Virus record (IMG/VR): IMGVR_UViG_3300045988_180980
Strand: one strand, 5' to 3'
DNA from: a virus
DNA: 64,000 nt
Shown: positions 47,511 to 56,859 of the stretch, one piece after another
How the letters are laid out: the number at the start of each line of letters is the position of its first letter
Numbering within the stretch: the stretch's first letter is position 1
The notes under the pieces: generated by a model
What the model was told of the DNA's origin: nothing
What the model saw: the letters and a program-made list of their open reading frames with translations, nothing else
Databases searched by the model: none
Program-made: the position numbers and the translations under genes

Positions 47511-50500
47511 ATGGCAAAGAAATTTACAGACATCAACGACCTTCTGCGCAAGAAGGACAATGAGGAGGCACGCGAGGAAATAGAGTCCTCGGGTGTGCCG
47601 CAGAACGAGTGCCTGTCTGCCGACGAATTTGTGAAGCAGATAGTCACCCCCATCCAGGAGCTGCAGGCTGATGCCAAGAAGAGTGTCAAGTCCGTCAAGT
47701 TCAATAACATCACCTACGAGCCTGATGCAGACGGTGTGGTGTCGTTCAATCAGATGGTGGAGAGCGACAGTTATGCCATACGACTGGCATCCGACCTCAA
47801 GGGCGACCGTAACATCAAAGAGGGTGACACGCTGACAGCCAACGTGCGCTACATGGCACTGAAGATCACCCAACTGGGCGACCGCGTAAATTATCGTGAC
47901 GTGCCAGGCACACTGCGCATCGACATCAAGAAGGAGGGGACCGACACGTGGCAGAACCGCTACGTCCAGACCAACATCGTGTCACAGGACGAGAATTACG
48001 ATGCAGGGAGTGCGGCTTCCTACCCCGTGAGCGTAGAGATAGGCAAGTATCTGACAGAGGGCCGACAGGACGTGCGCATCAGAGTGACTTCCTACTATGA
48101 GGACGAGAACGGTGTGAAGCGTGAGTTCTTCGGCGACCTCATCTACTCCATCAATGCCGTAAACCTCACCGTGAAGAACCTCACCGACTGGTCGAAGCGC
48201 ATCCTGGCCTCTGACGGTGGATTCCCCTTCTCATTCTCCGTAATGGGAGCCGTTGACAAGAAGCTGCATGTCACCATGACGGGTGCCACGGGCACATGGA
48301 CGATGGAACCGAAGACATTCCTGGCCGACGAGCAGCGACCCGAAGCCAATCCCTACTCGTGGACACAGCAGGAGATTTCGGCTTACGGACTGTTGTCGCA
48401 CGGCGTGCATACCGTCACGGCATGGGTGACGTGCGATGACGGCATGGGCGGCGAATTGTCTTCGGAAGTGCAGGTCAACCGCTTCATGGTGGTAAATGCA
48501 GCCACCGCCTCTCCTGCACAACTGGTACAGCCCTACCTGATGCTCCAGGGCGTGCAGAGTGTGGTGGAGAACTATGTGCGCACGGTCATCTCCAACTTTG
48601 CCGTGTGGGTGCCGAAGAGTGCCGATGCCCCCACTCTGCCTGCCACCGACCCGCTGCCCGTGAGCATCCGTATCACGAATGCCGGTGACGGCGACCTGGA
48701 CTACACGGCTTCCTACTATGTGTCTGAGCAGAAAGTCGTGGTGGGCGAGCGCTACCCGATTGACACCACCATCGAGATTGAGAACTCATCCTCTGGCGAG
48801 AGCCCTGCCTCTTACCAGGCATACTTGCGCATATTTCGATACAACGGCGACGAGGTGGTGAACTTCCTGCGTGAGAGCCAGGGCAACCGCTTTGTGGTGT
48901 TCACCGTGGATAACAAGAACGACTATTCGCCCGTGGCAGGTGCCCACTTCTATCTTGACCCCAAGGTGCGCAACAACACCGAGACGCACTTCCAGACCAT
49001 CGTCAACAAGCAGACGCAGGAGGAAGTGCCTTCTGTGTGGAACGGCTTTTCGGGTACGGGCGATGCCTGGGTGCAGGATGACGATGGCGTGAAGGTGCTC
49101 CGTATTCCGAGCGGACGAACGATTGTCATCGGTTACGAACCGTTTGAAGCTTTCAAAACGAACCCGTCGGCGGCAATGTCGCTTGAGATGGAGTTTGCCG
49201 TGCGCAACATTACCGCCGAAGACGATCCTGTAATCAGTGTGTCGCAAACCATTGAGAGTACGCTGGAGAAACTGGGCATCATCATCAAGCCGCTCACGGG
49301 TGCGGTATGGGCGCAGGAAAAGCAGAACGAGGATGACCAGGACTTCGGCTTCGAGGAAGACAAGCGCGTGCATCTTGTGGTGACGCTCACTCCGGCTCTC
49401 GTGGCCAAGGGCAGCGACGAGTTCAAATGGCAGACACCCAACAAGACTCCTTCCAACCGACCCACCGTGAAGGTGTATGTCAACGGCAAGCCGCAGCGTG
49501 CCGTACAGTATAGTGTCGATACCAACGGCGTGTGGATTCAGGGCGAAGGACACGGCGGCATCCGTCTGGGACACCCGTCGTGCGACCTCGACATCTACAC
49601 CATCCGCTGCTATCGTGGCGTTACGCTGTCGGCACAGAACGTGCTTCAGAACTTCACAGCCACACGCCCCGATGCCGAAACAAAGAACGCCATCCGCCAG
49701 CGCAACGATATACTGGATGGCAATGGGCGCGTCTCTTATCGCAAGGTGAAGGCGAAAAACAAGCGATGCCTGACCCTTGTGGGCACGGACAACTACAAGA
49801 TGAACCAGGACAAGAAGGTGGGCTATGCCTGCTATTGGAACATCGACTACTACGACAACACCGGCAACTACGTGCCTGAACTGTCGGGCACCATAGGCAA
49901 GGCTGCTTATCTGGCTTATGTGGCTGGCACACTCGGCGGCAAGAAGTGTCTGATGAATACTGCTCAGGGAAGCACAGCCAACACGTATTGGTGGAACAAC
50001 GAGCAGACGAAGTGCGATAAAGTCACGTACCGCATCCGCGTCCCCTTCCTTACACTTCATCCCGAATTTGGATGGAAGCCCGAGAAGTCGGACTTCACCG
50101 AGACGGCAGTTGCCTCGTTCCCTCTCTATCTCAACGGCGAGCAGATACAGGGTGCCGACGTGGCTACGCTCTCTGAGACACAGAAGGAGAAGCTGGAGAT
50201 TGAGGTGGTAGATGGATGGATTGACGGCAACGGCATGTATCACGGACAGTTCTACACGCCTGTCGTCGGTGGTCCGAAAGCCACGAAACTCGTCAACAAG
50301 ATCAACTATGCCTCGCCGATGCAGTCGCACAAGATGGGTGCCACGCGCCTCTACAACGACGTGATGAAGGCCGTGTGCAAGGATGAACTGCCCGACTGGT
50401 TTGCGGCGAACCCCGAGGCACGTTTTGCCGTGTACGAGGACTGTTATTACTTCTTCAATCAGCCCGAAGGCGAGAAGGAGCCGGTGTTTGTCGGCTTCGG

Positions 50501-53500
50501 CACATTCGGCTCGGGCAAGTGCGACAAGGCTACGTGGGGATATGACAAGAGCAAGATGTTTGCCTTCGAGGGCCTGAACAACAACCTTCCGCTGTGCGAC
50601 TTCCGCGTACCTGCCGACGAGGATGTGACGTATAGCGTGGATGATGAGTCGTGGGTGTATAACGGCATCAAGTCGTTTGAGTACTCGTTGGGCAAGACGA
50701 ATGCTGACGAAACACCTGTGGCAAAGAACGATGCCCTGTTCCGCCGCTACTGCAACTTCATATATGCCCATGACGTGCGTATGCAGTACTTCCGTGGCGA
50801 CCGTGCCGCGTTTGACGCGCATTATGCCAACGTATATGACCGTGCCACGGCTGTGGGTGCCACGGATGCCGACACGCAATTGCTGGACGAGATGCAGACC
50901 ACGAAATACTGGCTGCGCGACGGTGACGAAGCGTTCCACCTGCTGCGCTTCAACTATGCAACAGGCAAGTTTGTAGATGCGGGCATCTGGACGGATGCCG
51001 ACGGATATAAGCCGGGTGTGCGCAACCTCTCCACGGATGTCATCACGAAAGCCACCTACGAGGAGTGGAAGCAGAGCGAGGATGTGGGCGACTATGCCAA
51101 GCTGAACACCCGTTTCCAAATGGCCATCGCATCGTCGTTCAACGAGCACTGCCGCAAGTATCTCAACAAGAAAAACCACCAGGTACACTACACCCTGGTG
51201 AACTACCTCTATGCCGGTACTGACAACTGCTCTAAGAACACCTATTACACTATAGACATCACCACATCCCAGTGCTGGCTCTATCAGGACGATCTCGACA
51301 CCATATTCAAAACCGACAACAACGGACGACAGACGAAGGTGTATTTCCTCTCGCGCTATTTCGACGTGCAGGACACCGAGGCAGGCCTGAAGAAGCAGAA
51401 GGACTATGAGGGCACGGCTTCGGCATTGTTCAATGTCATGGAGGCGGCATGGGAGACGCTCGACCCAACCGCACTGCCTGCCAATATGCGTGAGGTGCTC
51501 ACGGCGATGTGTACGCTCGTGGGGGCCAACGAGGAGCTTGACGGCCTGACCACCACACAGCGCCAGACACCTTACGGCTGTCTGCATAAGTACTTCTTCG
51601 CTACGCAGAAGTATTTTGCAGAAGTGGCGTGGGCGGAACAGCAGCGCATCCGATACGACTGGCCCGCATCGTGGGGCTACGAGAGTTACGGCAACCAGGC
51701 ACGTGGTGTGCTGGCCGTGACGCAGGGCATAGGCGACCAGCTCGAGAGTGAGGTGCAATACATGACCCGCCGCCTGGCTCTCGTATGTTCGTATGCGGCA
51801 TGGGGCGACTTCTCCAGTGGCGTAAATACAGGCTCGACAGGTCTGGTGGATGCCAGCGCTGGTTTGCAGTTCACGCCTGGCTCGGGGCGCACAGGAGGTG
51901 AATATACGTTCGACCTCGTACCGCATCAGTTCCTCTACCCCTGCGGTGTGCGCGACCGTGCGCTCATCAACCCTCATATCCGCATGATACCGGGGCGGAA
52001 CTACACATTTACCGTCAACCCGGCATCTACGCCTATCCCAGGCGACTCGTCAGTAGGATTGGCCGCTACCAACTACTACCGCTCCATCGGCAACGTGGGC
52101 AATATGGTGGTGGGCAACAACAACTTCACCATCCAAGGTCGCCGCCTGACGGAGTTCATTGCCGAGCCGAAGGCGGGTAGCAGTGCCTTTGCCCCGAAGC
52201 AGATAGATGTGGATGCAGCCAACCTGCAGAGGTTGTCGCTCAATGGCGTAAGCACCTCCAGCGGCACATTCAACCTCTCCAAGGCTTCGCGTCTGCAGAC
52301 ACTCGACCTGCGCGGCACGCGGTACGGACAGGTGCGTATGCCGTCTTCGCCCCAACTCACCGAGGCGCGTTTTGGTGCCGAACTGTCGCAACTGGAGGTG
52401 CGCGACATGCAGCAGTTGCAAACGCTCACGCTGGACGGATATTCCCGCCTGACTTCGCTCACCGTGCTCAACTGCGGGTTTGACACCCTCGCCCTGGTGC
52501 GCGGATGCAGCGAGGCGGCTGCCAAACTGAGCACGTTGCGCATCAACGGAATTGAATGGACGGATGTTGCCCCTGCCATACTATCGTATATGGTGGGCAT
52601 CTCCTACTGCGAGATAGCGGGGCGCATAGCAGTCACGAGCGGACAGAACGTGGATGCCGAACTGAAGCTGGCACTGCTGCGCAAGTTCGGCAACATCGAC
52701 TCTGCCGACAACACCATATATATCATTTATTCGCTCCGTAACGTGACAGGGCTGCAGATCACCACACAGCGTTTTGTCATTGCCGAGGCGGGCGACTATC
52801 CCTACCAGTGCAGCGTGCTGCCGTCGATGGCAAACAACTTCTCCGACATCAGGTGGGAGGTGTCGGCCAACGACTTCAATGTGACTGTGGATGCCGAGAC
52901 GGGTGTGCTGCATGCGCCTATGGTGGGCGAGGAGAGCAACAATCCCACGGCCACGCTCACGGTGACGGCATATCTGACAGGCGGTGGCACAGTGTCGGCC
53001 AGCGTGGTGCTGAAGCTGTTCAACCGCATCCCCAAGCTGGGGGACTTTGCTTACTACAACGGTGAGTTCGACTCGGTGCTTTACCCGGGCAAGACGGTCA
53101 TCGGGTGGGTGTATAAGGTCACGCCGTATGCCGACCTTCCCTCCGACCTGCTCAACGAGTACCTGCAGGACGAGGAGACGGCTGCGCAATACAATGCTGG
53201 CAAGACACTGTACGAAGTGCTCGTTGAGGGTACTGATGATGTGACGCTGCGCACCACCAACGGCGCCAGTTCGTTCAACGTGATGGCATGGGGCATCTAT
53301 CCCGAGGATGCCGGCACGCAGGGCTTCACGCCCGAAGAGCGGGCACCCATTGCCGAGGCGCTGCAGACGACCGATGACAACCTGCTGGACATACCTGACG
53401 TGCGCAACTGTACATCAAGCGGACTGACCGATACCGAAGGTCAACCTACCCGTTACATCCGTGATAACAACGCCTATGACGACAGCACAGCCGACGGCTT

Positions 53501-54212
53501 CCCCAAGTTCGACGGTAATGTTGCTCCTAACAGGTGGGACGGCAGGAGGTGTACGCGGGCCATCGTGGAGCATGCCAACAAGGTGCTGGAGAAGTACGTG
53601 GCCGACGGTGTGATGACCGACAGCGAGGGGCACAACATCTTCGACTACCTGCCTGCCGGACGCGGACATATCATCCCTGAGAACAACGAGGAACTGGCCG
53701 ACCTGCTGGTGGCGCTGGGCAATCTGGGCGGCGGCGACCGCTGGATGCAGTTGGCCTATCCCGCTGCACGTGCCTGTGTGCTGTACGAACCCACCTCGGG
53801 CGGTAAGGCCATCGCGGGCCTTGCATCGGCGTTTGCCAAGGGCAGGTGGTATCTGCACGCTCCTGGCGATGAGTTCCGTCTGTACGTCTTCTTCCGCAAC
53901 AGCCGCGCCCTCTCGCCTGCCGACACAGGTACGCCCACCTCGGAGTTCTCCGACGAAGACAACCCTCTGCGCCCCACCGAGCCCACCGATGCCCGCCGCC
54001 CCTTCTATGCCAATCTGCAAAAAAGGTCCAAGGAGGCAAAATTAAACTGCCCGATAAGCGTACCCGCGCAGCCCGATCGCTGGTCATCCGTTGAGCAAGT
54101 ACGCCTTGCCTCCTGGTATGTCAGTTTCGGCAACGGCAACATCGGCCTCGCCGGCGGCAAGTCTTACAGGTTCCGGGTGCGCCCTGTCGTCGCTTTTAAC
54201 TTCGCCCTTTAG
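47511..54212 (+). CDS. giant tail fibre / receptor-binding protein; DGR target with C-terminal variable region
   Basis: 2233 aa. There are LRR-like repeats at about 52221..52560 and a Big_2-like Ig segment at about 52750..53020. The C-terminus is DUF1566/C-type-lectin-like (WYLHAPGDEFRLYVF ... RWSSVE...RFRVRPVVAF). Its last ~130 nt are repeated as the TR. Confidence 0.85.
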   Translation: MAKKFTDINDLLRKKDNEEAREEIESSGVPQNECLSADEFVKQIVTPIQELQADAKKSVKSVKFNNITYEPDADGVVSFNQMVESDSYAIRLASDLKGDRNIKEGDTLTANVRYMALKITQLGDRVNYRDVPGTLRIDIKKEGTDTWQNRYVQTNIVSQDENYDAGSAASYPVSVEIGKYLTEGRQDVRIRVTSYYEDENGVKREFFGDLIYSINAVNLTVKNLTDWSKRILASDGGFPFSFSVMGAVDKKLHVTMTGATGTWTMEPKTFLADEQRPEANPYSWTQQEISAYGLLSHGVHTVTAWVTCDDGMGGELSSEVQVNRFMVVNAATASPAQLVQPYLMLQGVQSVVENYVRTVISNFAVWVPKSADAPTLPATDPLPVSIRITNAGDGDLDYTASYYVSEQKVVVGERYPIDTTIEIENSSSGESPASYQAYLRIFRYNGDEVVNFLRESQGNRFVVFTVDNKNDYSPVAGAHFYLDPKVRNNTETHFQTIVNKQTQEEVPSVWNGFSGTGDAWVQDDDGVKVLRIPSGRTIVIGYEPFEAFKTNPSAAMSLEMEFAVRNITAEDDPVISVSQTIESTLEKLGIIIKPLTGAVWAQEKQNEDDQDFGFEEDKRVHLVVTLTPALVAKGSDEFKWQTPNKTPSNRPTVKVYVNGKPQRAVQYSVDTNGVWIQGEGHGGIRLGHPSCDLDIYTIRCYRGVTLSAQNVLQNFTATRPDAETKNAIRQRNDILDGNGRVSYRKVKAKNKRCLTLVGTDNYKMNQDKKVGYACYWNIDYYDNTGNYVPELSGTIGKAAYLAYVAGTLGGKKCLMNTAQGSTANTYWWNNEQTKCDKVTYRIRVPFLTLHPEFGWKPEKSDFTETAVASFPLYLNGEQIQGADVATLSETQKEKLEIEVVDGWIDGNGMYHGQFYTPVVGGPKATKLVNKINYASPMQSHKMGATRLYNDVMKAVCKDELPDWFAANPEARFAVYEDCYYFFNQPEGEKEPVFVGFGTFGSGKCDKATWGYDKSKMFAFEGLNNNLPLCDFRVPADEDVTYSVDDESWVYNGIKSFEYSLGKTNADETPVAKNDALFRRYCNFIYAHDVRMQYFRGDRAAFDAHYANVYDRATAVGATDADTQLLDEMQTTKYWLRDGDEAFHLLRFNYATGKFVDAGIWTDADGYKPGVRNLSTDVITKATYEEWKQSEDVGDYAKLNTRFQMAIASSFNEHCRKYLNKKNHQVHYTLVNYLYAGTDNCSKNTYYTIDITTSQCWLYQDDLDTIFKTDNNGRQTKVYFLSRYFDVQDTEAGLKKQKDYEGTASALFNVMEAAWETLDPTALPANMREVLTAMCTLVGANEELDGLTTTQRQTPYGCLHKYFFATQKYFAEVAWAEQQRIRYDWPASWGYESYGNQARGVLAVTQGIGDQLESEVQYMTRRLALVCSYAAWGDFSSGVNTGSTGLVDASAGLQFTPGSGRTGGEYTFDLVPHQFLYPCGVRDRALINPHIRMIPGRNYTFTVNPASTPIPGDSSVGLAATNYYRSIGNVGNMVVGNNNFTIQGRRLTEFIAEPKAGSSAFAPKQIDVDAANLQRLSLNGVSTSSGTFNLSKASRLQTLDLRGTRYGQVRMPSSPQLTEARFGAELSQLEVRDMQQLQTLTLDGYSRLTSLTVLNCGFDTLALVRGCSEAAAKLSTLRINGIEWTDVAPAILSYMVGISYCEIAGRIAVTSGQNVDAELKLALLRKFGNIDSADNTIYIIYSLRNVTGLQITTQRFVIAEAGDYPYQCSVLPSMANNFSDIRWEVSANDFNVTVDAETGVLHAPMVGEESNNPTATLTVTAYLTGGGTVSASVVLKLFNRIPKLGDFAYYNGEFDSVLYPGKTVIGWVYKVTPYADLPSDLLNEYLQDEETAAQYNAGKTLYEVLVEGTDDVTLRTTNGASSFNVMAWGIYPEDAGTQGFTPEERAPIAEALQTTDDNLLDIPDVRNCTSSGLTDTEGQPTRYIRDNNAYDDSTADGFPKFDGNVAPNRWDGRRCTRAIVEHANKVLEKYVADGVMTDSEGHNIFDYLPAGRGHIIPENNEELADLLVALGNLGGGDRWMQLAYPAARACVLYEPTSGGKAIAGLASAFAKGRWYLHAPGDEFRLYVFFRNSRALSPADTGTPTSEFSDEDNPLRPTEPTDARRPFYANLQKRSKEAKLNCPISVPAQPDRWSSVEQVRLASWYVSFGNGNIGLAGGKSYRFRVRPVVAFNFAL
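54065..54195 (+). repeat. DGR variable repeat (VR)
   Basis: 131 nt homologous to 55002..55129. The flanks are identical (20 nt ATCGCTGGTCATCCGTTGAG and 29 nt CAGGTTCCGGGTGCGCCCTGTCGTCGCTT). In the diverged centre most TR adenines are replaced. Confidence 0.8.
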
Positions 54213-54223
54213 CCTTAAACACT

Positions 54224-54246
54224 CGGTGCGCCTTAATAGCGCACCG
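54224..54246 (+). promoter_or_regulatory. hairpin downstream of VR (candidate DGR target-recognition element)
   Basis: CGGTGCGC-cttaata-GCGCACCG, an 8-bp perfect stem beginning 29 nt after the end of VR homology. Confidence 0.5.
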
Positions 54247-54284
54247 CATGCGCGAGAGGACAAGTTGCACAAGATTAGGTAATT

Positions 54285-54320
54285 ACACTCTCCGCGCAAT
54301 AGCGTGGAGAGTGTTTTCTC
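54285..54320 (+). terminator. intrinsic terminator after the DGR target gene
   Basis: ACACTCTCC...GGAGAGTGT stem followed by TTTTC. Confidence 0.6.
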
Positions 54321-54363
54321 AAAACTTTCTTTCCCAACGCTTGCATGTGTTAGAAAAAAGTCG

Positions 54364-54371
54364 TACTTTTG
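54364..54371 (+). promoter_or_regulatory. Bacteroidota-type -7 box TACTTTTG (avd-TR-RT promoter)
   Basis: Matches TAnnTTTG, 31 nt upstream of the avd ATG. Confidence 0.4.
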
Positions 54372-54401
54372 CGTTGTTCTTAGACGTTAAGGACTAATAC
54401 C

Positions 54402-54860
54402 ATGGAGAACAAACAAGATATAAATAATACAGACAAAACAGAAACTGTTCACATAACGGAGGAGCAGAAAAGGAGAAGCGGCAAACTCAAGAAAGAGGTT
54501 GTCAAAACCATCCGACAGCAAGCCGTTTACCGTGATGCGCAGAACCTGTTTTTTGTCCTGGCACAGACACGCAAGACTTGCCCTGTCAACTTCCGTGCTG
54601 TGCTGGAGACCCTGTATCTGGGGTGCAATGCCGTACTGGTGGCGCTGTCGCTCGCCTATTCCGAGCCGGCGGCGAGGGTCGATCAACTGACCATCGCCAG
54701 TGCGCACCTCGATGCAGTGCGTACATCAATGGGTATTCTGCGCTCCATGGGCTGCATGAGCCGGGATGATTACAAGAAAGCCAAGTCGCTGGCAGAATCC
54801 TGCACCAAGCAGGTACTTGCCTGGCGGGCGTCTTCAAGGGGTCTGTGTCCCGCGATGTAG
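54402..54860 (+). CDS. avd: Avd-like accessory variability determinant (four-helix-bundle protein)
   Basis: 152 aa, basic and helical (…AQNLFFVLAQTRK…LYLGCNAVLVALSLAY…AHLDAVRTSMGILRSMG…). It sits between the target gene and the TR-RT, the canonical DGR position. Confidence 0.7.
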   Translation: MENKQDINNTDKTETVHITEEQKRRSGKLKKEVVKTIRQQAVYRDAQNLFFVLAQTRKTCPVNFRAVLETLYLGCNAVLVALSLAYSEPAARVDQLTIASAHLDAVRTSMGILRSMGCMSRDDYKKAKSLAESCTKQVLAWRASSRGLCPAM

Positions 54861-54885
54861 TAATGTTCAATCACGAGAGTGAATT

Positions 54886-56340
54886 ATGATTCGCGGAAGT
54901 GTATCACTGGAGATGTTAGAAGGGGGGCTTACCTATCATGGGCTTCGGTCATACGGACGGGAGACCCTGAATGGTTACGAAGATGCAAAGCCCCAATACG
55001 ACGCGCAGACCAATCGCTGGTCATCCGTTGAGAGCAACCGGTCCAACGCCTGGAATTGCAATTTCAACGACGGCAACCTCAACAACAACAACAAGTATAA
55101 CAGGTTCCGGGTGCGCCCTGTCGTCGCTTATGACACTCCTGCCGACTTCCTCAATCTCGTGTTTGCCGCTTTCCATGACTGCTGCCGCACCAAGCGTACC
55201 AGTGCAGAGTGCATAGCCTATTGTGAGCGGGCGCAGCAGGACCTGCCGCTGCTGGCTCACGAACTATATACAGGCACCTACCAGCCTGGCCCCAGCACGT
55301 GTTTCCTGGTCAAATATCCCAAGTACCGCGAGGTGTTTGCTGCCGGATTCCGCGATCGTATCGTACACCACTTCATCTATCTTCTGCTCAACCCCTGTTT
55401 CGAGGAGCGCTTTGTGGCGCAAGGCAATGTGTCGTTCAACTGCCGCAAGGGCTTCGGCACACTGGCAGCGCAGCAGGCGGCATTCGAGGCCATCCGTACC
55501 GCAACCGACAATTACCGCACGCCTGCCGTGGTATATCGGGGCGACCTGGTGTCCTTCTTCATGTCCATAGACAAGCGCATCCTGTGGAGCAGGCTGGAGC
55601 CGTTCATACACGAGGAGTACCACGGACCCTATCTCACCCAGCTGCTCACGGTGACACGCACCGTGGTGTTCCATTGTCCCGAGAAGAACTGCCTGTTCAG
55701 TACCGACCCAGCCGAATGGGCGCTGCACGTGCCTGTCCATAAGTCGCTCTTCACCAACGGCGACTCTTTCGGTATGCCTATCGGCAATCTCACTACACAG
55801 ATATTCGCCAACTTCCTCATGTCCTTCTTCGACGAGTTCGTCATCCGATGGATGAAGGGTCACGGACTGGACGTGCACTACGTCCGCTTTGTGGACGACT
55901 TCCTGTTCATCTGTCGCAACAAACACTTGCTCAAGTGCCTGATAGCCGACGCAGCGGTGTTCCTGCAGAGCGAACTTGGCCTGACGCTCCACTTCGACAA
56001 GCATCATTTCCAGCCCGCCGCACACGGAGTGCTCTTCGTGGGCGCTTATCTCAAGAACTGGCGCATGTATCTCTCTGGCCGCACCGTGGCACGCTTCATC
56101 GAGCGCATGCACGGATTCGACGGCATGCTGCTGAACAAGCAGTGCATCACGCTGGCCGACACGCAGAGGATGGAACAGGTGGTGAACTCCTACCTGGGAT
56201 TCCTGAACGGGAAGCGCACCTACAACATACGCCGGGCGGCACTCGCAGCCATGTGCCCACGCTTCTATGACCATGCCTACATACGCGGCCGCTACACCTC
56301 AATACGCTCACGCCGCAGGCTGAAAACGGCATCATTGTAA
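54886..56340 (+). CDS. DGR reverse transcriptase (the ORF includes the TR in frame)
   Basis: PKYREVFAAGFRDRIVHH, NCRKGFGTLAA, GMPIGNLTTQIFANF (the DGR-type IGxxxSQ block, 55780..55800), YVRFVDDFLFI (catalytic xVDD) and LFVGAYL are all present. There is no in-frame ATG between 54886 and the RT domain. Confidence 0.9.
   Translation: MIRGSVSLEMLEGGLTYHGLRSYGRETLNGYEDAKPQYDAQTNRWSSVESNRSNAWNCNFNDGNLNNNNKYNRFRVRPVVAYDTPADFLNLVFAAFHDCCRTKRTSAECIAYCERAQQDLPLLAHELYTGTYQPGPSTCFLVKYPKYREVFAAGFRDRIVHHFIYLLLNPCFEERFVAQGNVSFNCRKGFGTLAAQQAAFEAIRTATDNYRTPAVVYRGDLVSFFMSIDKRILWSRLEPFIHEEYHGPYLTQLLTVTRTVVFHCPEKNCLFSTDPAEWALHVPVHKSLFTNGDSFGMPIGNLTTQIFANFLMSFFDEFVIRWMKGHGLDVHYVRFVDDFLFICRNKHLLKCLIADAAVFLQSELGLTLHFDKHHFQPAAHGVLFVGAYLKNWRMYLSGRTVARFIERMHGFDGMLLNKQCITLADTQRMEQVVNSYLGFLNGKRTYNIRRAALAAMCPRFYDHAYIRGRYTSIRSRRRLKTASL
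55002..55129 (+). repeat. DGR template repeat (TR)
   Basis: AAC-rich (…AAC CTC AAC AAC AAC AAC AAG TAT AAC…) homologue of the VR, located between avd and the RT domain. Confidence 0.8.
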
Positions 56341-56367: not shown

Positions 56368-56859
56368 ATGGACACAAGGATTTTCACCCAGGAGACCACG
56401 GCATCCGGCACACGGCCGCTGCCCATAGTGCGCTCTTATGCGCGACAGACTGAGTTTCTTACGCTCAACCTGGACATGAAGCCCTGTGAACCCGATGGAG
56501 AGGCGCAGGACATCCCCTCCGACGATGCAGGGCAGAAGCCTGTGCTGTACCGTGGCATCACGGTGAGCGTGTCACACCGTGGGCGCATGGATGCTGCCGG
56601 CATACTGTCCCTGCTCTATGCCCAGGGACTGTACCCGCGCATCGACACGCACTTCCTGCAGGCGCTCGCCTGCACCTTCGGCATCGCGGGCTACAGGCAG
56701 TTGGCAGCCCTGCTCATAGGCGGGCGCTACTCCTATGCCGAGGAACTGGCCGCACACCGCAAGGCGCTCTCCGGCGACACAGCCGACTTGGACGAGCTCT
56801 CGCGCTTTGCCGAGGAGTGCAAGGCCATGGCACGCCCAGTATTCACCTCCAACGAATAG
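56368..56859 (+). CDS. hypothetical protein
   Basis: 163-aa ATG ORF directly after the RT. Confidence 0.45.
   Translation: MDTRIFTQETTASGTRPLPIVRSYARQTEFLTLNLDMKPCEPDGEAQDIPSDDAGQKPVLYRGITVSVSHRGRMDAAGILSLLYAQGLYPRIDTHFLQALACTFGIAGYRQLAALLIGGRYSYAEELAAHRKALSGDTADLDELSRFAEECKAMARPVFTSNE

Follow-up and report, generated by a model that had tools for sequence, protein, structure and literature searches.

Described DGRs and overlap of the template with the reverse transcriptase

DGRs reach their highest density in the human gut, and many of them reside in Bacteroidales phages and prophages. To our knowledge, all mechanistic knowledge of DGRs stems from the Bordetella phage element, in which the template repeat (TR) is non-coding and a 140-nt spacer serves for priming. 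The BPP-1 element is arranged as mtd with its variable repeat (VR), avd, TR, the 140-nt spacer and brt, and structures of its RNP are available (PDB 8ub7-8ube). In the Bordetella RNP, a duplex of sequences lying upstream and downstream of the TR constitutes the cDNA stop (bioRxiv 10.1101/2023.10.23.563531).

Overlap of the TR with annotated RT ORFs was catalogued as an annotation class by DiGReF in 2012 (PMC3521204), and the element described here matches the group 3 architecture of that collection. In the passages of that paper that were searched, neither the frame and the start codon nor conservation, translation and RNA structure are discussed. Wu 2018, Yan 2019, Roux 2021, Benler 2018, Macadangdang 2024 and the zeta-crAss paper do not discuss such an overlap either, and the later papers searched call the TR non-coding or make no comment. 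The overlap has been known as a class since 2012, and no analysis of it was found in the literature searched.

The DGR of the analysed window

The window, i.e., the whole 64,000-nt stretch of IMG/VR virus record IMGVR_UViG_3300045988_180980, carries a phage-type DGR of a Bacteroidales clade, with target/VR, avd, TR and RT in the order also found in BPP-1; all features given below lie on the plus strand. The target gene (47511..54212) encodes a tail-fibre-like protein of 2233 aa, recognised from its ORF and from homology to the target of the cultured phage BS-TP1, which stands upstream of the BS-TP1 avd. The VR (54066..54197), delimited by alignment to the TR, is located at the C-terminus of this protein, within the last 49 codons of the ORF; no Pfam family was matched by its C-terminal 403 aa, and the only family signal was the sub-threshold Lcl_C match on the TR-encoded copy described below.

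The accessory variability determinant, avd (54402..54860), encodes 152 aa. Its ORF had no matches in Pfam or PHROGs, and its identity came from structure prediction: the AlphaFold2 model (pLDDT 84) is a four-helix bundle, for which Foldseek returned BPP-1 Avd 4dwl (TM 0.85), the Avd chains of 8ub7, and the S23-family structures 2gsc and 2rld. One avd homologue carries PF22296 bAvd.

The RT ORF, 484 aa long (54886..56340), matches RVT_1 at aa 146-386 (E 2.8e-10) and PHROG 1423 reverse transcriptase (2.7e-61), and its best match in PDB is the Bordetella bRT of 8ub7 (E 3.8e-16), so that in both its RT and its Avd fold the element resembles BPP-1. The hallmark motif is the variant IGNLTTQ (GxxxTQ), invariant throughout the clade, whereas BPP-1 has GxxxSQ. 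RT homology begins at ORF residue 85, with the TR ending 4 nt before it, and ORF residue 101 aligns with bRT residue 27. AlphaFold2 predicts a folded RT proper at residues ~82-484 (55129..56337, pLDDT 82-97), the first confidently predicted helix of which spans residues 86-100 and contains the near-invariant F88.

Conservation of the open frame through the TR

The TR (55003..55131; 129 nt, identified by its homology to the VR) occupies codons 40-82 of the RT ORF, for which the ORF list and the conservation of the start point to ATG 54886..54888 as the initiation codon. The TR thus lies wholly within an ATG-initiated RT frame, as proposed earlier in a sequence-only reading of this DNA, and, the TR being inside the only conserved RT ORF, there is no TR-RT spacer outside the coding sequence. 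The next in-frame Met was also correctly placed far inside the RT domain (M226, in FFMSIDKR). The ATG at 54886, described in the same reading as the nearest upstream in-frame one, does exist, but a second ATG at 54913 (M10) is closer to the RT homology. In these respects the locus departs from BPP-1, whose non-coding TR precedes an equally non-coding spacer of ~140 nt that carries the priming adenosine; here the TR ends 4-22 nt from the RT fold, and both the TR and the element 5' of it stand inside the RT ORF, where we infer them to be translated.

A locus search with the single protein yielded only a near-identical IMG/VR contig, and an alignment query was needed for a wider set; in a DNA search of a phage collection, near and distant, only the TR of BS-TP1 matched. 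The relatives compared were 60 distinct viral loci with RTs at least 40% identical, together with Bacteroidales genome loci down to ~38% identity. In all 60 viral loci the stretch from the ATG to the RT core is free of stops in frame 0, while frames +1 and +2 are open in none of them (on average 4.7 and 7.3 stops, respectively); the Bacteroidales genome loci, down to ~38% RT identity, are likewise open through the TR. This stretch varies in length from 237 to 327 nt, and each of the 18 length classes is a multiple of 3. Of the 120 highest-ranking protein homologues, which reach down to 45% identity, almost every one spans 92-100% of the 484-aa ORF, and in many of them an Lcl_C match falls inside the "RT"; the RT of BS-TP1 is annotated in the same way.

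The N-terminal Met is aligned in 60 of the 60 relatives, and its columns are the only ones with a universal start codon. In 47 loci the avd stop codon and the upstream ATG share nucleotides, as ATGA in 23 cases; in the other 13 the ATG follows 1-25 nt past the stop. In the window, 25 nt separate the avd stop from ATG 54886. The fusion of RT with a TR-encoded peptide, one of the two options considered in the sequence-only reading, is favoured by the clade-wide open frame, the avd-coupled ATG and the indels that keep the frame. Among the relatives compared, no start downstream of the TR is conserved and the open frame is, the reverse of the combination that the sequence-only reading had named as refuting it.

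Openness in the VR frame is inherent to any TR, and continuity with the RT frame would arise by chance in about 1 of 3 cases.

RNA structure around the TR

Directly 5' of the TR lies a conserved two-tier RNA hairpin (54924..54994), identified by covariation and a covariance model and corresponding to residues ~13-37 of the ORF (G-G-L-T … Y-E-D-A-K-P). The outer stem pairs 54924-54930 with 54988-54994 and appears in the fold prediction as well as in the covariation analysis, which also supports the inner stem, 54931-54937 with 54969-54975; on the 3' side, a conserved, A-rich internal loop of 12 nt, UACGAAGAUGCA, occupies 54976-54987. The hairpin segments were taken in a fixed register anchored on the protein alignment, with no fitting to structure. 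In this register 92.4% of the hairpin cells are paired, compared with 32-41% when the pairing is slid, and 12 of the 14 pairs show changes on both sides; the covariation score of 0.65 (0.10-0.13 when slid) was reached by none of 500 shuffles. The covariance model has a sole match in the window, 54919..54999 (52.1 bits, E 5.5e-11), and exactly one per clade locus, in each case just 5' of the TR, 16 of the matched clade loci having been left out of model building. A search of 589 kb on both strands at E up to 0.01 gave nothing beyond the clade-locus matches, and Rfam, at E up to 1, had nothing relevant for 54150..55600. The UAAGAACAAG variant of the hairpin would call for a model of its own beside the covariance model (R1).

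A large two-tier structure precedes the TR, where BPP-1 has only a 20-nt avd segment. The same architecture is kept 5' of the TR in neighbouring outgroup Bacteroidales and gut DGRs (e.g., Segatella copri L152/L157, Prevotellaceae L131/L134), with a different internal loop, UAAGAACAAGGUAAU; a search of the outgroups for the internal-loop motif, with up to 2 substitutions, returned scattered chance matches only. The TR-RT spacer is very short or absent in these DGRs, and in some of them the TR is in phase with RT. The RT Met of the outgroups is located 20-80 nt after the TR, right before the RT core, with no in-frame ATG upstream of the TR, so the TR and the hairpin are outside the RT protein. 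As the hairpin architecture is kept there, the RNA element would seem to be older than the extension of the ORF.

The minimum-free-energy fold of 54886..55175 further suggests a putative flank duplex, P1, closing the TR, with a z-score of only -1.66. Its 5' strand (GGAAGU … GGAG.UGUUA.AAG; 54895..54922) would comprise codons 4-13, and its 3' strand (CUU.AUGACA.CUCC … ACUUCC; 55127..55150) codons 81-89. In the window P1 is interrupted, the longest perfect run being 6 bp. Across loci the best-helix mean of the native flanks is 7.18 versus 6.05 for cross-locus combinations, and the native mean was reached in 1 of 2000 permutations, with a register that varies; between loci L020 and L065, a change in one strand of the duplex is compensated in the other. 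The flank duplex appears to bracket the TR, and this putative pairing of upstream and downstream sequences resembles the avd:Sp "cPRT Stop" duplex of BPP-1, in which structured RNA also brackets the TR. The earlier expectation that the RNA elements flanking the TR would be embedded in RT codons was borne out on the 5' side by the covarying hairpin; on the 3' side the result is more modest, a short flank duplex. The 3' strand of P1 covers the end of the TR, the linker and the first RT helix.

Downstream, no conserved RNA structure emerged over the 270 nt past the first RT helix when a codon-anchored alignment starting at the TR was folded with RNAalifold, and among 59 codon-aligned sequences no conserved helix of at least 6 bp was seen from the TR to 270 nt past that helix. 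Fixed-register k-mer complementarity scans, between the upstream and downstream regions and within the downstream region, and a column-pair diagonal scan gave only diagonals of 4-5 bp, at chance level, and the duplex positions obtained with RNAduplex for individual loci were inconsistent among them. Since no conserved downstream structure was found, no equivalents were located of the Sp priming site and the Avd-binding stem-loop that lie downstream of the TR in BPP-1. A recurrent pairing of (AAC)n with GUUGUU of the PLFE codons was considered and rejected, as it is missing in the window and unsupported.

Start of RT translation and nature of the N-terminal tail

On the comparative evidence, translation of RT probably begins at 54886 and adds an 81-residue tail, the sequence of which follows from the needs of the RNA; that the tail is made in vivo is what we infer from its conservation. 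A fortuitous frame or a gene-calling artefact, i.e., a TR open by construction that happens to be in phase with RT, would have some plausibility for a single genome, given the 1-in-3 prior for the phase and a modest chance that 39 GC-rich codons are stop-free. All clade members compared as DNA show this phase and openness, however, across RT identities of 38-100%, a GC content of ~35-60% and many indels, which makes this explanation barely credible; on these alignments the open frame through the TR is conserved and not due to chance. Another alternative is that RT starts internally, on a non-ATG codon located at the 3' end of the TR or beyond it (GTG 55111, GTG 55159 or a rarer codon), the upstream frame being an untranslated by-product. 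In-frame GTGs are indeed present, V76 at the 3' end of the TR (55111..55113) and V92 in CTCGTGTTT (55159..55161); bRT has ~26 residues before the equivalent of ORF residue 101, so that a start near residues 75-85 would give a "normal" RT, and the outgroup RTs begin after the TR. The second of these codons, which the sequence-only reading had put at 55150..55152 and offered as the alternative start, is unsupported in that role: only 15 of the 60 relatives have a start codon at this column, it lies in the middle of helix 86-100, which includes F88 and would be cut, and 24 relatives have no ATG, GTG or TTG over the interval from the end of the TR to the first RT helix. Initiation at GTG 55111 would produce an N-terminus of bRT length, yet that column is not conserved either (GTG in 11/60), and five loci lack any ATG, GTG or TTG from the end of the hairpin onward. 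An untranslated leader would, moreover, not be expected to stay stop-free in one frame at 60 of 60 loci across loops of variable length while 3-7 stops build up in the other frames, and an internal start leaves the ATG kept at the avd stop unexpected. Although non-canonical initiation (at CTG, ATT and the like) may take place after the TR, we regard an internal start as quite improbable.

If the tail is translated from 54886, it could also have a protein function of its own, either as a pseudo-VR or lectin-like module or as a regulatory tail contacting Avd, the target or RNA. Its 43 TR-encoded residues copy the C-terminal scaffold of the target variable domain and give a weak, sub-threshold Lcl_C match (aa 41-79, 20.8 bits against a cutoff of 34.9), it precedes the RT N-terminal subdomain, which contacts Avd in Bordetella bRT, and the first 20 codons have a pN/pS of 0.59, not 1. 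Residues 1-81 are, however, predicted to be disordered (AlphaFold2 pLDDT 30-43, despite an alignment of 64 sequences), and 43 residues are a mere fragment of a C-type-lectin fold. The pN/pS ratio rises to 0.78 in the variable loop and linker and to 0.98 in the 3' half of the hairpin, versus 0.26 in the RT core, with pS of 0.17 and 0.80 in the latter two regions. Outside the TR, every conserved peptide motif coincides with an RNA helix or with the internal loop, itself conserved, and amino-acid changes track the base-pair covariation (CTT/AAG, CAT/ATG, CTG/CAG, ATT/AAT); in a sister subclade SYEDAKPQ is replaced by LVKNKIV while the RNA architecture is kept. A functional role of the tail as protein is thus considered unlikely, and, with predicted disorder and relaxed constraint at the protein level, it is more likely to be a passenger than to form a lectin-like domain. 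Of the "pseudo-VR peptide" suggested from the sequence, the TR-encoded copy within a fused ORF was upheld; the predicted disorder and relaxed constraint speak against its being a functional module.

Proposed mechanism and its significance

In the translation from 54886 favoured here, the RT gene of the clade would have no start codon of its own beside the RT domain, and synthesis would begin at the ATG by the avd stop (54886 in the window; overlapping that stop in most relatives). The ribosome would then traverse the 5' strand of the flank duplex, the two-tier hairpin with its loop UACGAAGAUGCA and the whole TR before reaching the RT fold at about residue 82. A start beside avd followed by read-through of the TR would endow RT with an N-terminal tail of ~81 residues, including an invariant copy of the C-terminal segment of the target. 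The amino-acid sequence of the tail would be a by-product dictated by the RNA helices and the TR, under weak protein constraint save for freedom from stops. By analogy with the Bordetella phage RNP, the hairpin and the flank duplex may act in cis, positioning the template and halting cDNA synthesis at the 5' edge of the TR.

More tentatively, and as a possibility that we consider less than even, the DGR RNA (flank duplex, hairpin and TR) may be one and the same as the coding leader at the 5' end of the RT mRNA, with translation and RNP formation excluding each other and with priming unlike that of BPP-1. A given transcript would be either translated, coupling to avd unfolding the RNA elements, or folded and bound by RT-Avd. 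The bound form would sequester the start region, which lies 9 nt ahead of the duplex. Such a scheme would build autoregulation of RT abundance into the element and favour use of the template in cis, the 81-residue tail being the price of the arrangement. Cis-priming from a downstream spacer, as in BPP-1, would have to be replaced by another mechanism; cDNA synthesis might start, in the manner of retrons, at the A-rich internal loop that is conserved ahead of the template. In the group II intron Ll.LtrB, the intron-encoded RT binds DIVa, which holds its own ribosome-binding site and start codon. The likeness is one of analogy only: here too a presumed high-affinity RNA element overlaps the RT coding start, and translation would be mutually exclusive with RNP formation as in Ll.LtrB, which belongs to a different class of retroelements.

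In a large Bacteroidales clade the TR appears to be translated, and there is no spacer. If so, annotation software that regards the TR as intergenic, or cuts RT back to its Pfam domain, mis-describes these elements, and the RNA determinants of priming and termination would be organised differently from those of BPP-1 and could now be mapped. Codons, structured RNA and a mutagenesis template would share the same nucleotides as compact overlapping constraints, and a switch between translation and reverse transcription would be plausible. The 14-bp covarying hairpin with its conserved 12-nt internal loop is an immediate target for mutagenesis, and since the clade includes the cultured phage BS-TP1, which infects Bacteroides salyersiae BG8, as well as cultured hosts (clade members are carried by isolates such as Palleniella muris NM73_A23 and Prevotella sp. 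MGM2), the predictions are directly testable.

Template and variable repeats

The VR (132 nt) is one codon longer than the TR, which within the RT ORF is read in the frame of the VR (…NRWSSVESNRSNAWNCNFNDGNLNNNNKYNRFRVRPVVAY). In the window the two repeats differ by 34 substitutions, 22 at TR adenines and 12 at other bases, and by a 3-nt indel. In a sibling contig (97.5% identical, with the same TR) the TR/VR mismatches fall at 17 A and 1 G, and in nearly all relatives they are confined to adenines, a focus shared with BPP-1. Adenine-specific differences are therefore typical of this type of element and atypical for the copy in the window, the VR of which, with 12 non-A mismatches and an indel, is unlike a recent copy of the TR and may not have undergone recent retrohoming. 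The last ~30 nt are identical in VR and TR and almost free of A, forming a GC-rich, IMH-like 3' end. Downstream of the VR and the stop codon, fold prediction places a hairpin at 54224..54246, with 8-bp arms CGGTGCGC and GCGCACCG and a 7-nt loop. A hairpin after the VR is also a feature of BPP-1, and an analogous GC-rich hairpin can be read from the sequence after the VR of BS-TP1.

DGR cassette of the window

The window carries on its plus strand a complete cassette of a diversity-generating retroelement (DGR) composed of four parts. The target gene (47511..54212, 2233 aa) has the variable repeat (VR, 54066..54197) at its end and an 8-bp hairpin 3' of the VR (54224-54246); then come avd, the accessory variability determinant (a 152-aa ORF, 54402..54860), and a 484-aa reverse transcriptase (RT) ORF (54886..56340), which comprises the template repeat (TR, 55003..55131) followed by the RT domain. 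The 152-aa avd ORF has no match in Pfam or PHROG; its AlphaFold2 model is a four-helix bundle (pLDDT 84) matching the Avd of the Bordetella phage (4dwl, TM 0.85), the Avd chains of the DGR ribonucleoprotein 8ub7, and S23-family proteins. The top match of the RT among solved structures is the Bordetella bRT (8ub7_A, E 3.8e-16). The RT lineage, the Avd, and the TR/VR pair with its adenine bias in relatives all fit, and the element is a DGR.

Some further features of the cassette were noted. The RT motif IGNLTTQ (residues 299-305, about 55780..55800) has the form GxxxTQ, invariant among 23 aligned clade members, and not the canonical DGR hallmark GxxxSQ. Two RT homologues, P0029 and P0072, contain in-frame low-complexity insertions within the RT, one each: a QSNA-type repeat after the fingers and a proline-rich PP(T/A)LS repeat before the C-terminal helices. 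The interval separating the target gene from avd contains, at 54285..54314, a 13-bp inverted repeat, ACACTCTCCGCGC / GCGTGGAGAGTGT, with a 4-nt loop and a subsequent T-rich run. It resembles a terminator; if it acts as one, avd, TR, and RT would not share the transcript of the target gene. The 163-aa ORF directly 3' of the RT (56368..56859) has no Pfam or PHROG match; the equivalent position in Bacteroides phage BS-TP1 holds a DUF4376 protein. This ORF is a candidate for a further DGR accessory gene.

Open reading frame through the TR

As the sequence-only reading had observed, the TR lies wholly within the RT ORF, in the frame shared with the VR, and the next methionine past residue 10 is the distant M226. 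Two details of that reading need correction: a second in-frame ATG at 54913 makes 54886 not the nearest one upstream, and the GTG of CTCGTGTTT, placed at 55150..55152 and proposed as an alternative start, is located at 55159..55161. A further in-frame GTG (55111..55113) lies within the 3' end of the TR. For one genome the arrangement could be a matter of chance: the VR frame is by construction open across a TR, and the RT has a probability of about 1/3 of being in phase with it. Comparison with relatives was therefore needed.

A protein search with the 484-aa ORF gave 1033 matches at E up to 1e-10; nearly all of the 120 top matches, whose identity goes down to 45%, are 450-540 aa long and cover 92-100% of the query, and many of these 120 have a precomputed Lcl_C (PF07603) match inside the RT protein. 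The sole match in a distant DNA search of annotated phages was the TR of BS-TP1, which falls under an annotated 493-aa 'reverse transcriptase' overlapping the end of a 'four helix bundle protein'. A control of the frame at the DNA level matters because the protein database consists of gene calls favouring long ORFs; the DNA of 79 viral and 80 genome loci was fetched and examined without reliance on gene callers.

In all 60 distinct viral loci with an RT core at least 40% identical to that of the window (only identical or near-identical extensions having been removed, and the IMG/VR and metagenome-assembled-genome loci not being phylogenetically independent) the RT frame is open for 66-117 codons 5' of the core, through the TR. 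Frame 0 contains no stop between the ATG and the core in any of the 60; the control frames, with a mean of 4.7 stops in +1 and 7.3 in +2, are open in none. The ATG-to-core distance of 237-327 nt falls into 18 length classes, every one a multiple of three, so indels keep the frame. The frame is likewise open in Bacteroidales genome loci down to ~38% identity, from Bacteroidaceae, Prevotellaceae, Muribaculaceae, Paludibacteraceae, and Parabacteroides of gut and rumen. The TR/VR pairs of the related loci differ almost exclusively at TR adenines, which marks these loci as working DGRs. Judged from these sequences, the open frame through the TR is a character of the clade.

Start of RT translation

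In the protein alignment of the extension (the residues preceding the RT fold) a universal start codon is found only at the N-terminal Met columns. In 47 of the 60 loci this upstream ATG and the avd stop overlap by 4-23 nt (23 are of the ATGA type); in the remaining 13 the ATG lies 1-25 nt past the stop, the window having 25 nt. The alternative, initiation at a non-ATG codon at or after the TR end, finds candidate codons in part of the loci: the column of GTG 55159 holds a start codon in 15/60 and that of GTG 55111 in 11/60. No column 3' of the TR holds one in more than 20/60 loci, and ATG, GTG, and TTG are absent between the TR end and the first RT helix in 24/60, from the last ten TR codons onward in 9/60, and anywhere 3' of the hairpin described below in 5/60. 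A start at GTG 55159 was rejected: this codon lies inside helix 86-100 of the model, 3' of the near-invariant F88, and its use would damage the fold.

A conserved downstream start with a non-conserved frame across the TR, which the sequence-only reading had named as what would refute it, is the state of the neighbours and not of the clade. The outgroup DGRs (31-39% RT identity) have their own RT Met 1-15 codons before the core, and their TR ends 20-80 nt upstream; in two S. copri-type outgroup loci the TR is in phase with the RT, yet the Met follows the TR.

RNA elements within the RT ORF

The apparent peptide motifs L-N/K-G-R/G-L/F-T and S/G-Y-E-D-A-K-P-Q preceding the TR each represent one half of an RNA hairpin. 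In its outer stem G[CG]GNNNN on the 5' side pairs with NNNNC[CG]C on the 3' side, with compensatory variants including GCGGCTG/CAGCCGC, GCGACAT/ATGTCGC, GCGTATT/AATACGC, GAGCCTT/AAGGCTC, GCGACTC/GAGTCGC, and the window's own GGGGCTT/AAGCCCC; the inner stem closes a loop of variable length, and the 12-nt 3' internal loop, UACGAAGNUGCA, is nearly invariant. With the segments in a fixed register anchored on the protein alignment alone, 92.4% of the hairpin cells are paired versus 32-41% with the partner slid by 1-3 nt; 12 of 14 pairs show changes on both sides, and the covariation score is 0.65 (reached by 0/500 shuffles) versus 0.10-0.13 with the pairing slid. A covariance model built from these segments finds one match of 38-65 bits per clade locus, always on the plus strand and directly upstream of the TR; 16 of the loci lie outside its building set. 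Its single match in the 64-kb window is 54919..54999 (52.1 bits); across 589 kb on both strands there was no other match at E up to 0.01, only two weak ones (E 0.055 and 0.26). No Rfam family matches the window's hairpin.

In a sister subclade the two-tier architecture is retained with another loop, UAAGAACAAGAUA, which translates as LVKNKIV. In the outgroup DGRs, whose RT starts after the TR, this hairpin likewise precedes the TR and is not part of the RT ORF; the hairpin is therefore the older feature, predating the ORF extension, and the clade's RT frame was extended across it. A two-tier hairpin directly 5' of the TR, with a different, A-rich internal loop, UAAGAACAAG(G/A)UA(AU), was also seen in a wider set of gut DGRs, including elements whose RT starts after the TR (L131, L134, L114, L152, L157, L160, and L074, about 60-100 nt 5' of the TR; L102, L107-L110, L113, L117, and L119). 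It seems to be a cis element shared generally across a large group of DGRs.

In many lineages the segment just 5' of the hairpin (codons H-N-P-L-N, e.g., ATAATCCGTTAA) is complementary to the linker codons directly 3' of the TR (e.g., TTGACGGATTAT), and a compensatory change in this flank duplex separates two related loci, L020 and L065. The mean best helix of native flanks is 7.18 versus 6.05 for cross-locus pairs (1/2000 permutations reaches the native mean) and 5.87 for shuffled flanks. In the minimum-free-energy fold of 54886..55175, whose z-score alone is only -1.66, 54895-54922 pairs with 55127-55150, closing the TR as a domain; the hairpin also forms, its base 8 nt upstream of the TR's first nucleotide. 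The putative duplex bracketing the TR is reminiscent of one in the Bordetella ribonucleoprotein, the avd:Sp 'cPRT Stop' duplex, which terminates cDNA synthesis and is also required for it (bioRxiv 10.1101/2023.10.23.563531). In the RT codons further 3' no conserved RNA structure was found, and no counterpart of the Avd-binding stem-loop or of the priming site in the spacer was located.

Properties of the N-terminal tail

AlphaFold2 (64-sequence alignment) gives pLDDT 30-43 at residues 1-81 and 82-97 from residue 82 on, the first predicted RT helix being 86-100. As uncorrected proportions across many non-independent pairs, pN/pS (pS) is 0.26 (0.80) in the RT core, 0.31 (0.49) in the TR, 0.59 (0.52) in the first 20 codons of the RT ORF, 0.78 (0.61) in the variable loop, 0.78 (0.52) in the TR-RT linker, and 0.98 (0.17) in the hairpin 3' half. 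The tail is predicted to be disordered and is weakly constrained at the protein level. The hairpin's low pS indicates constraint at the nucleotide rather than the amino-acid level.

Comparison with known systems and a possible mechanism

In DGRs of the BPP-1 type the TR is by definition non-coding and a non-coding spacer comes after it; the window element departs from this. The TR/RT overlap itself is already known: TRs overlapping the 5' end of annotated RT ORFs form architecture 'group 3' of the DiGReF 2012 survey (PMC3521204); the passages searched yielded no treatment of the frame, the start codon, translation, or the structure of the RNA. The later surveys and gut-phage papers searched call the TR non-coding or pass over the overlap. 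To our knowledge, the conserved frame and start, a tail sequence that follows the RNA, and the existence of the hairpin are apparently undescribed in the literature searched.

A single conserved ORF runs from the avd stop through the hairpin and the TR into the RT, and the hairpin within it is kept by base-pair covariation. On wholly evolutionary evidence, the RT would be translated from 54886 as a ~55 kDa protein with an 81-residue passenger tail, its translation probably coupled to that of avd. We infer that the hairpin and the flank duplex are cis elements of the clade's DGR RNA. As a speculation, translation of an RNA molecule and its use as template may be mutually exclusive, since 9 nt separate the start codon from the duplex and the hairpin, the flank duplex, and the TR would all have to be melted by ribosomes.

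Differences between VR and TR

The window VR differs from the TR at 22 adenine and 12 non-adenine positions and by a 3-nt (one-codon) indel. In a 97.5%-identical IMG/VR contig with an identical TR (L002/L003) the VR differs at 17 A and 1 G, without an indel. It looks as if the window VR was written from a different TR allele (with ATC, GTC, and five AAC codons) or recombined in at the 3' end of the target; the window copy may be recombined or may have undergone no recent retrohoming.

The VR exceeds the TR by 3 nt (once by 6 nt) in about ten related loci (L001, L006, L022, L025-L027, L037, L044, L053, and L062). The window indel, the sole case aligned, is at an (AAC)n tract, (AAC)4 at 55081..55092, which suggests slippage on AAC repeats during cDNA synthesis or homing; if so, variation in loop length would be added to the substitution diversity.
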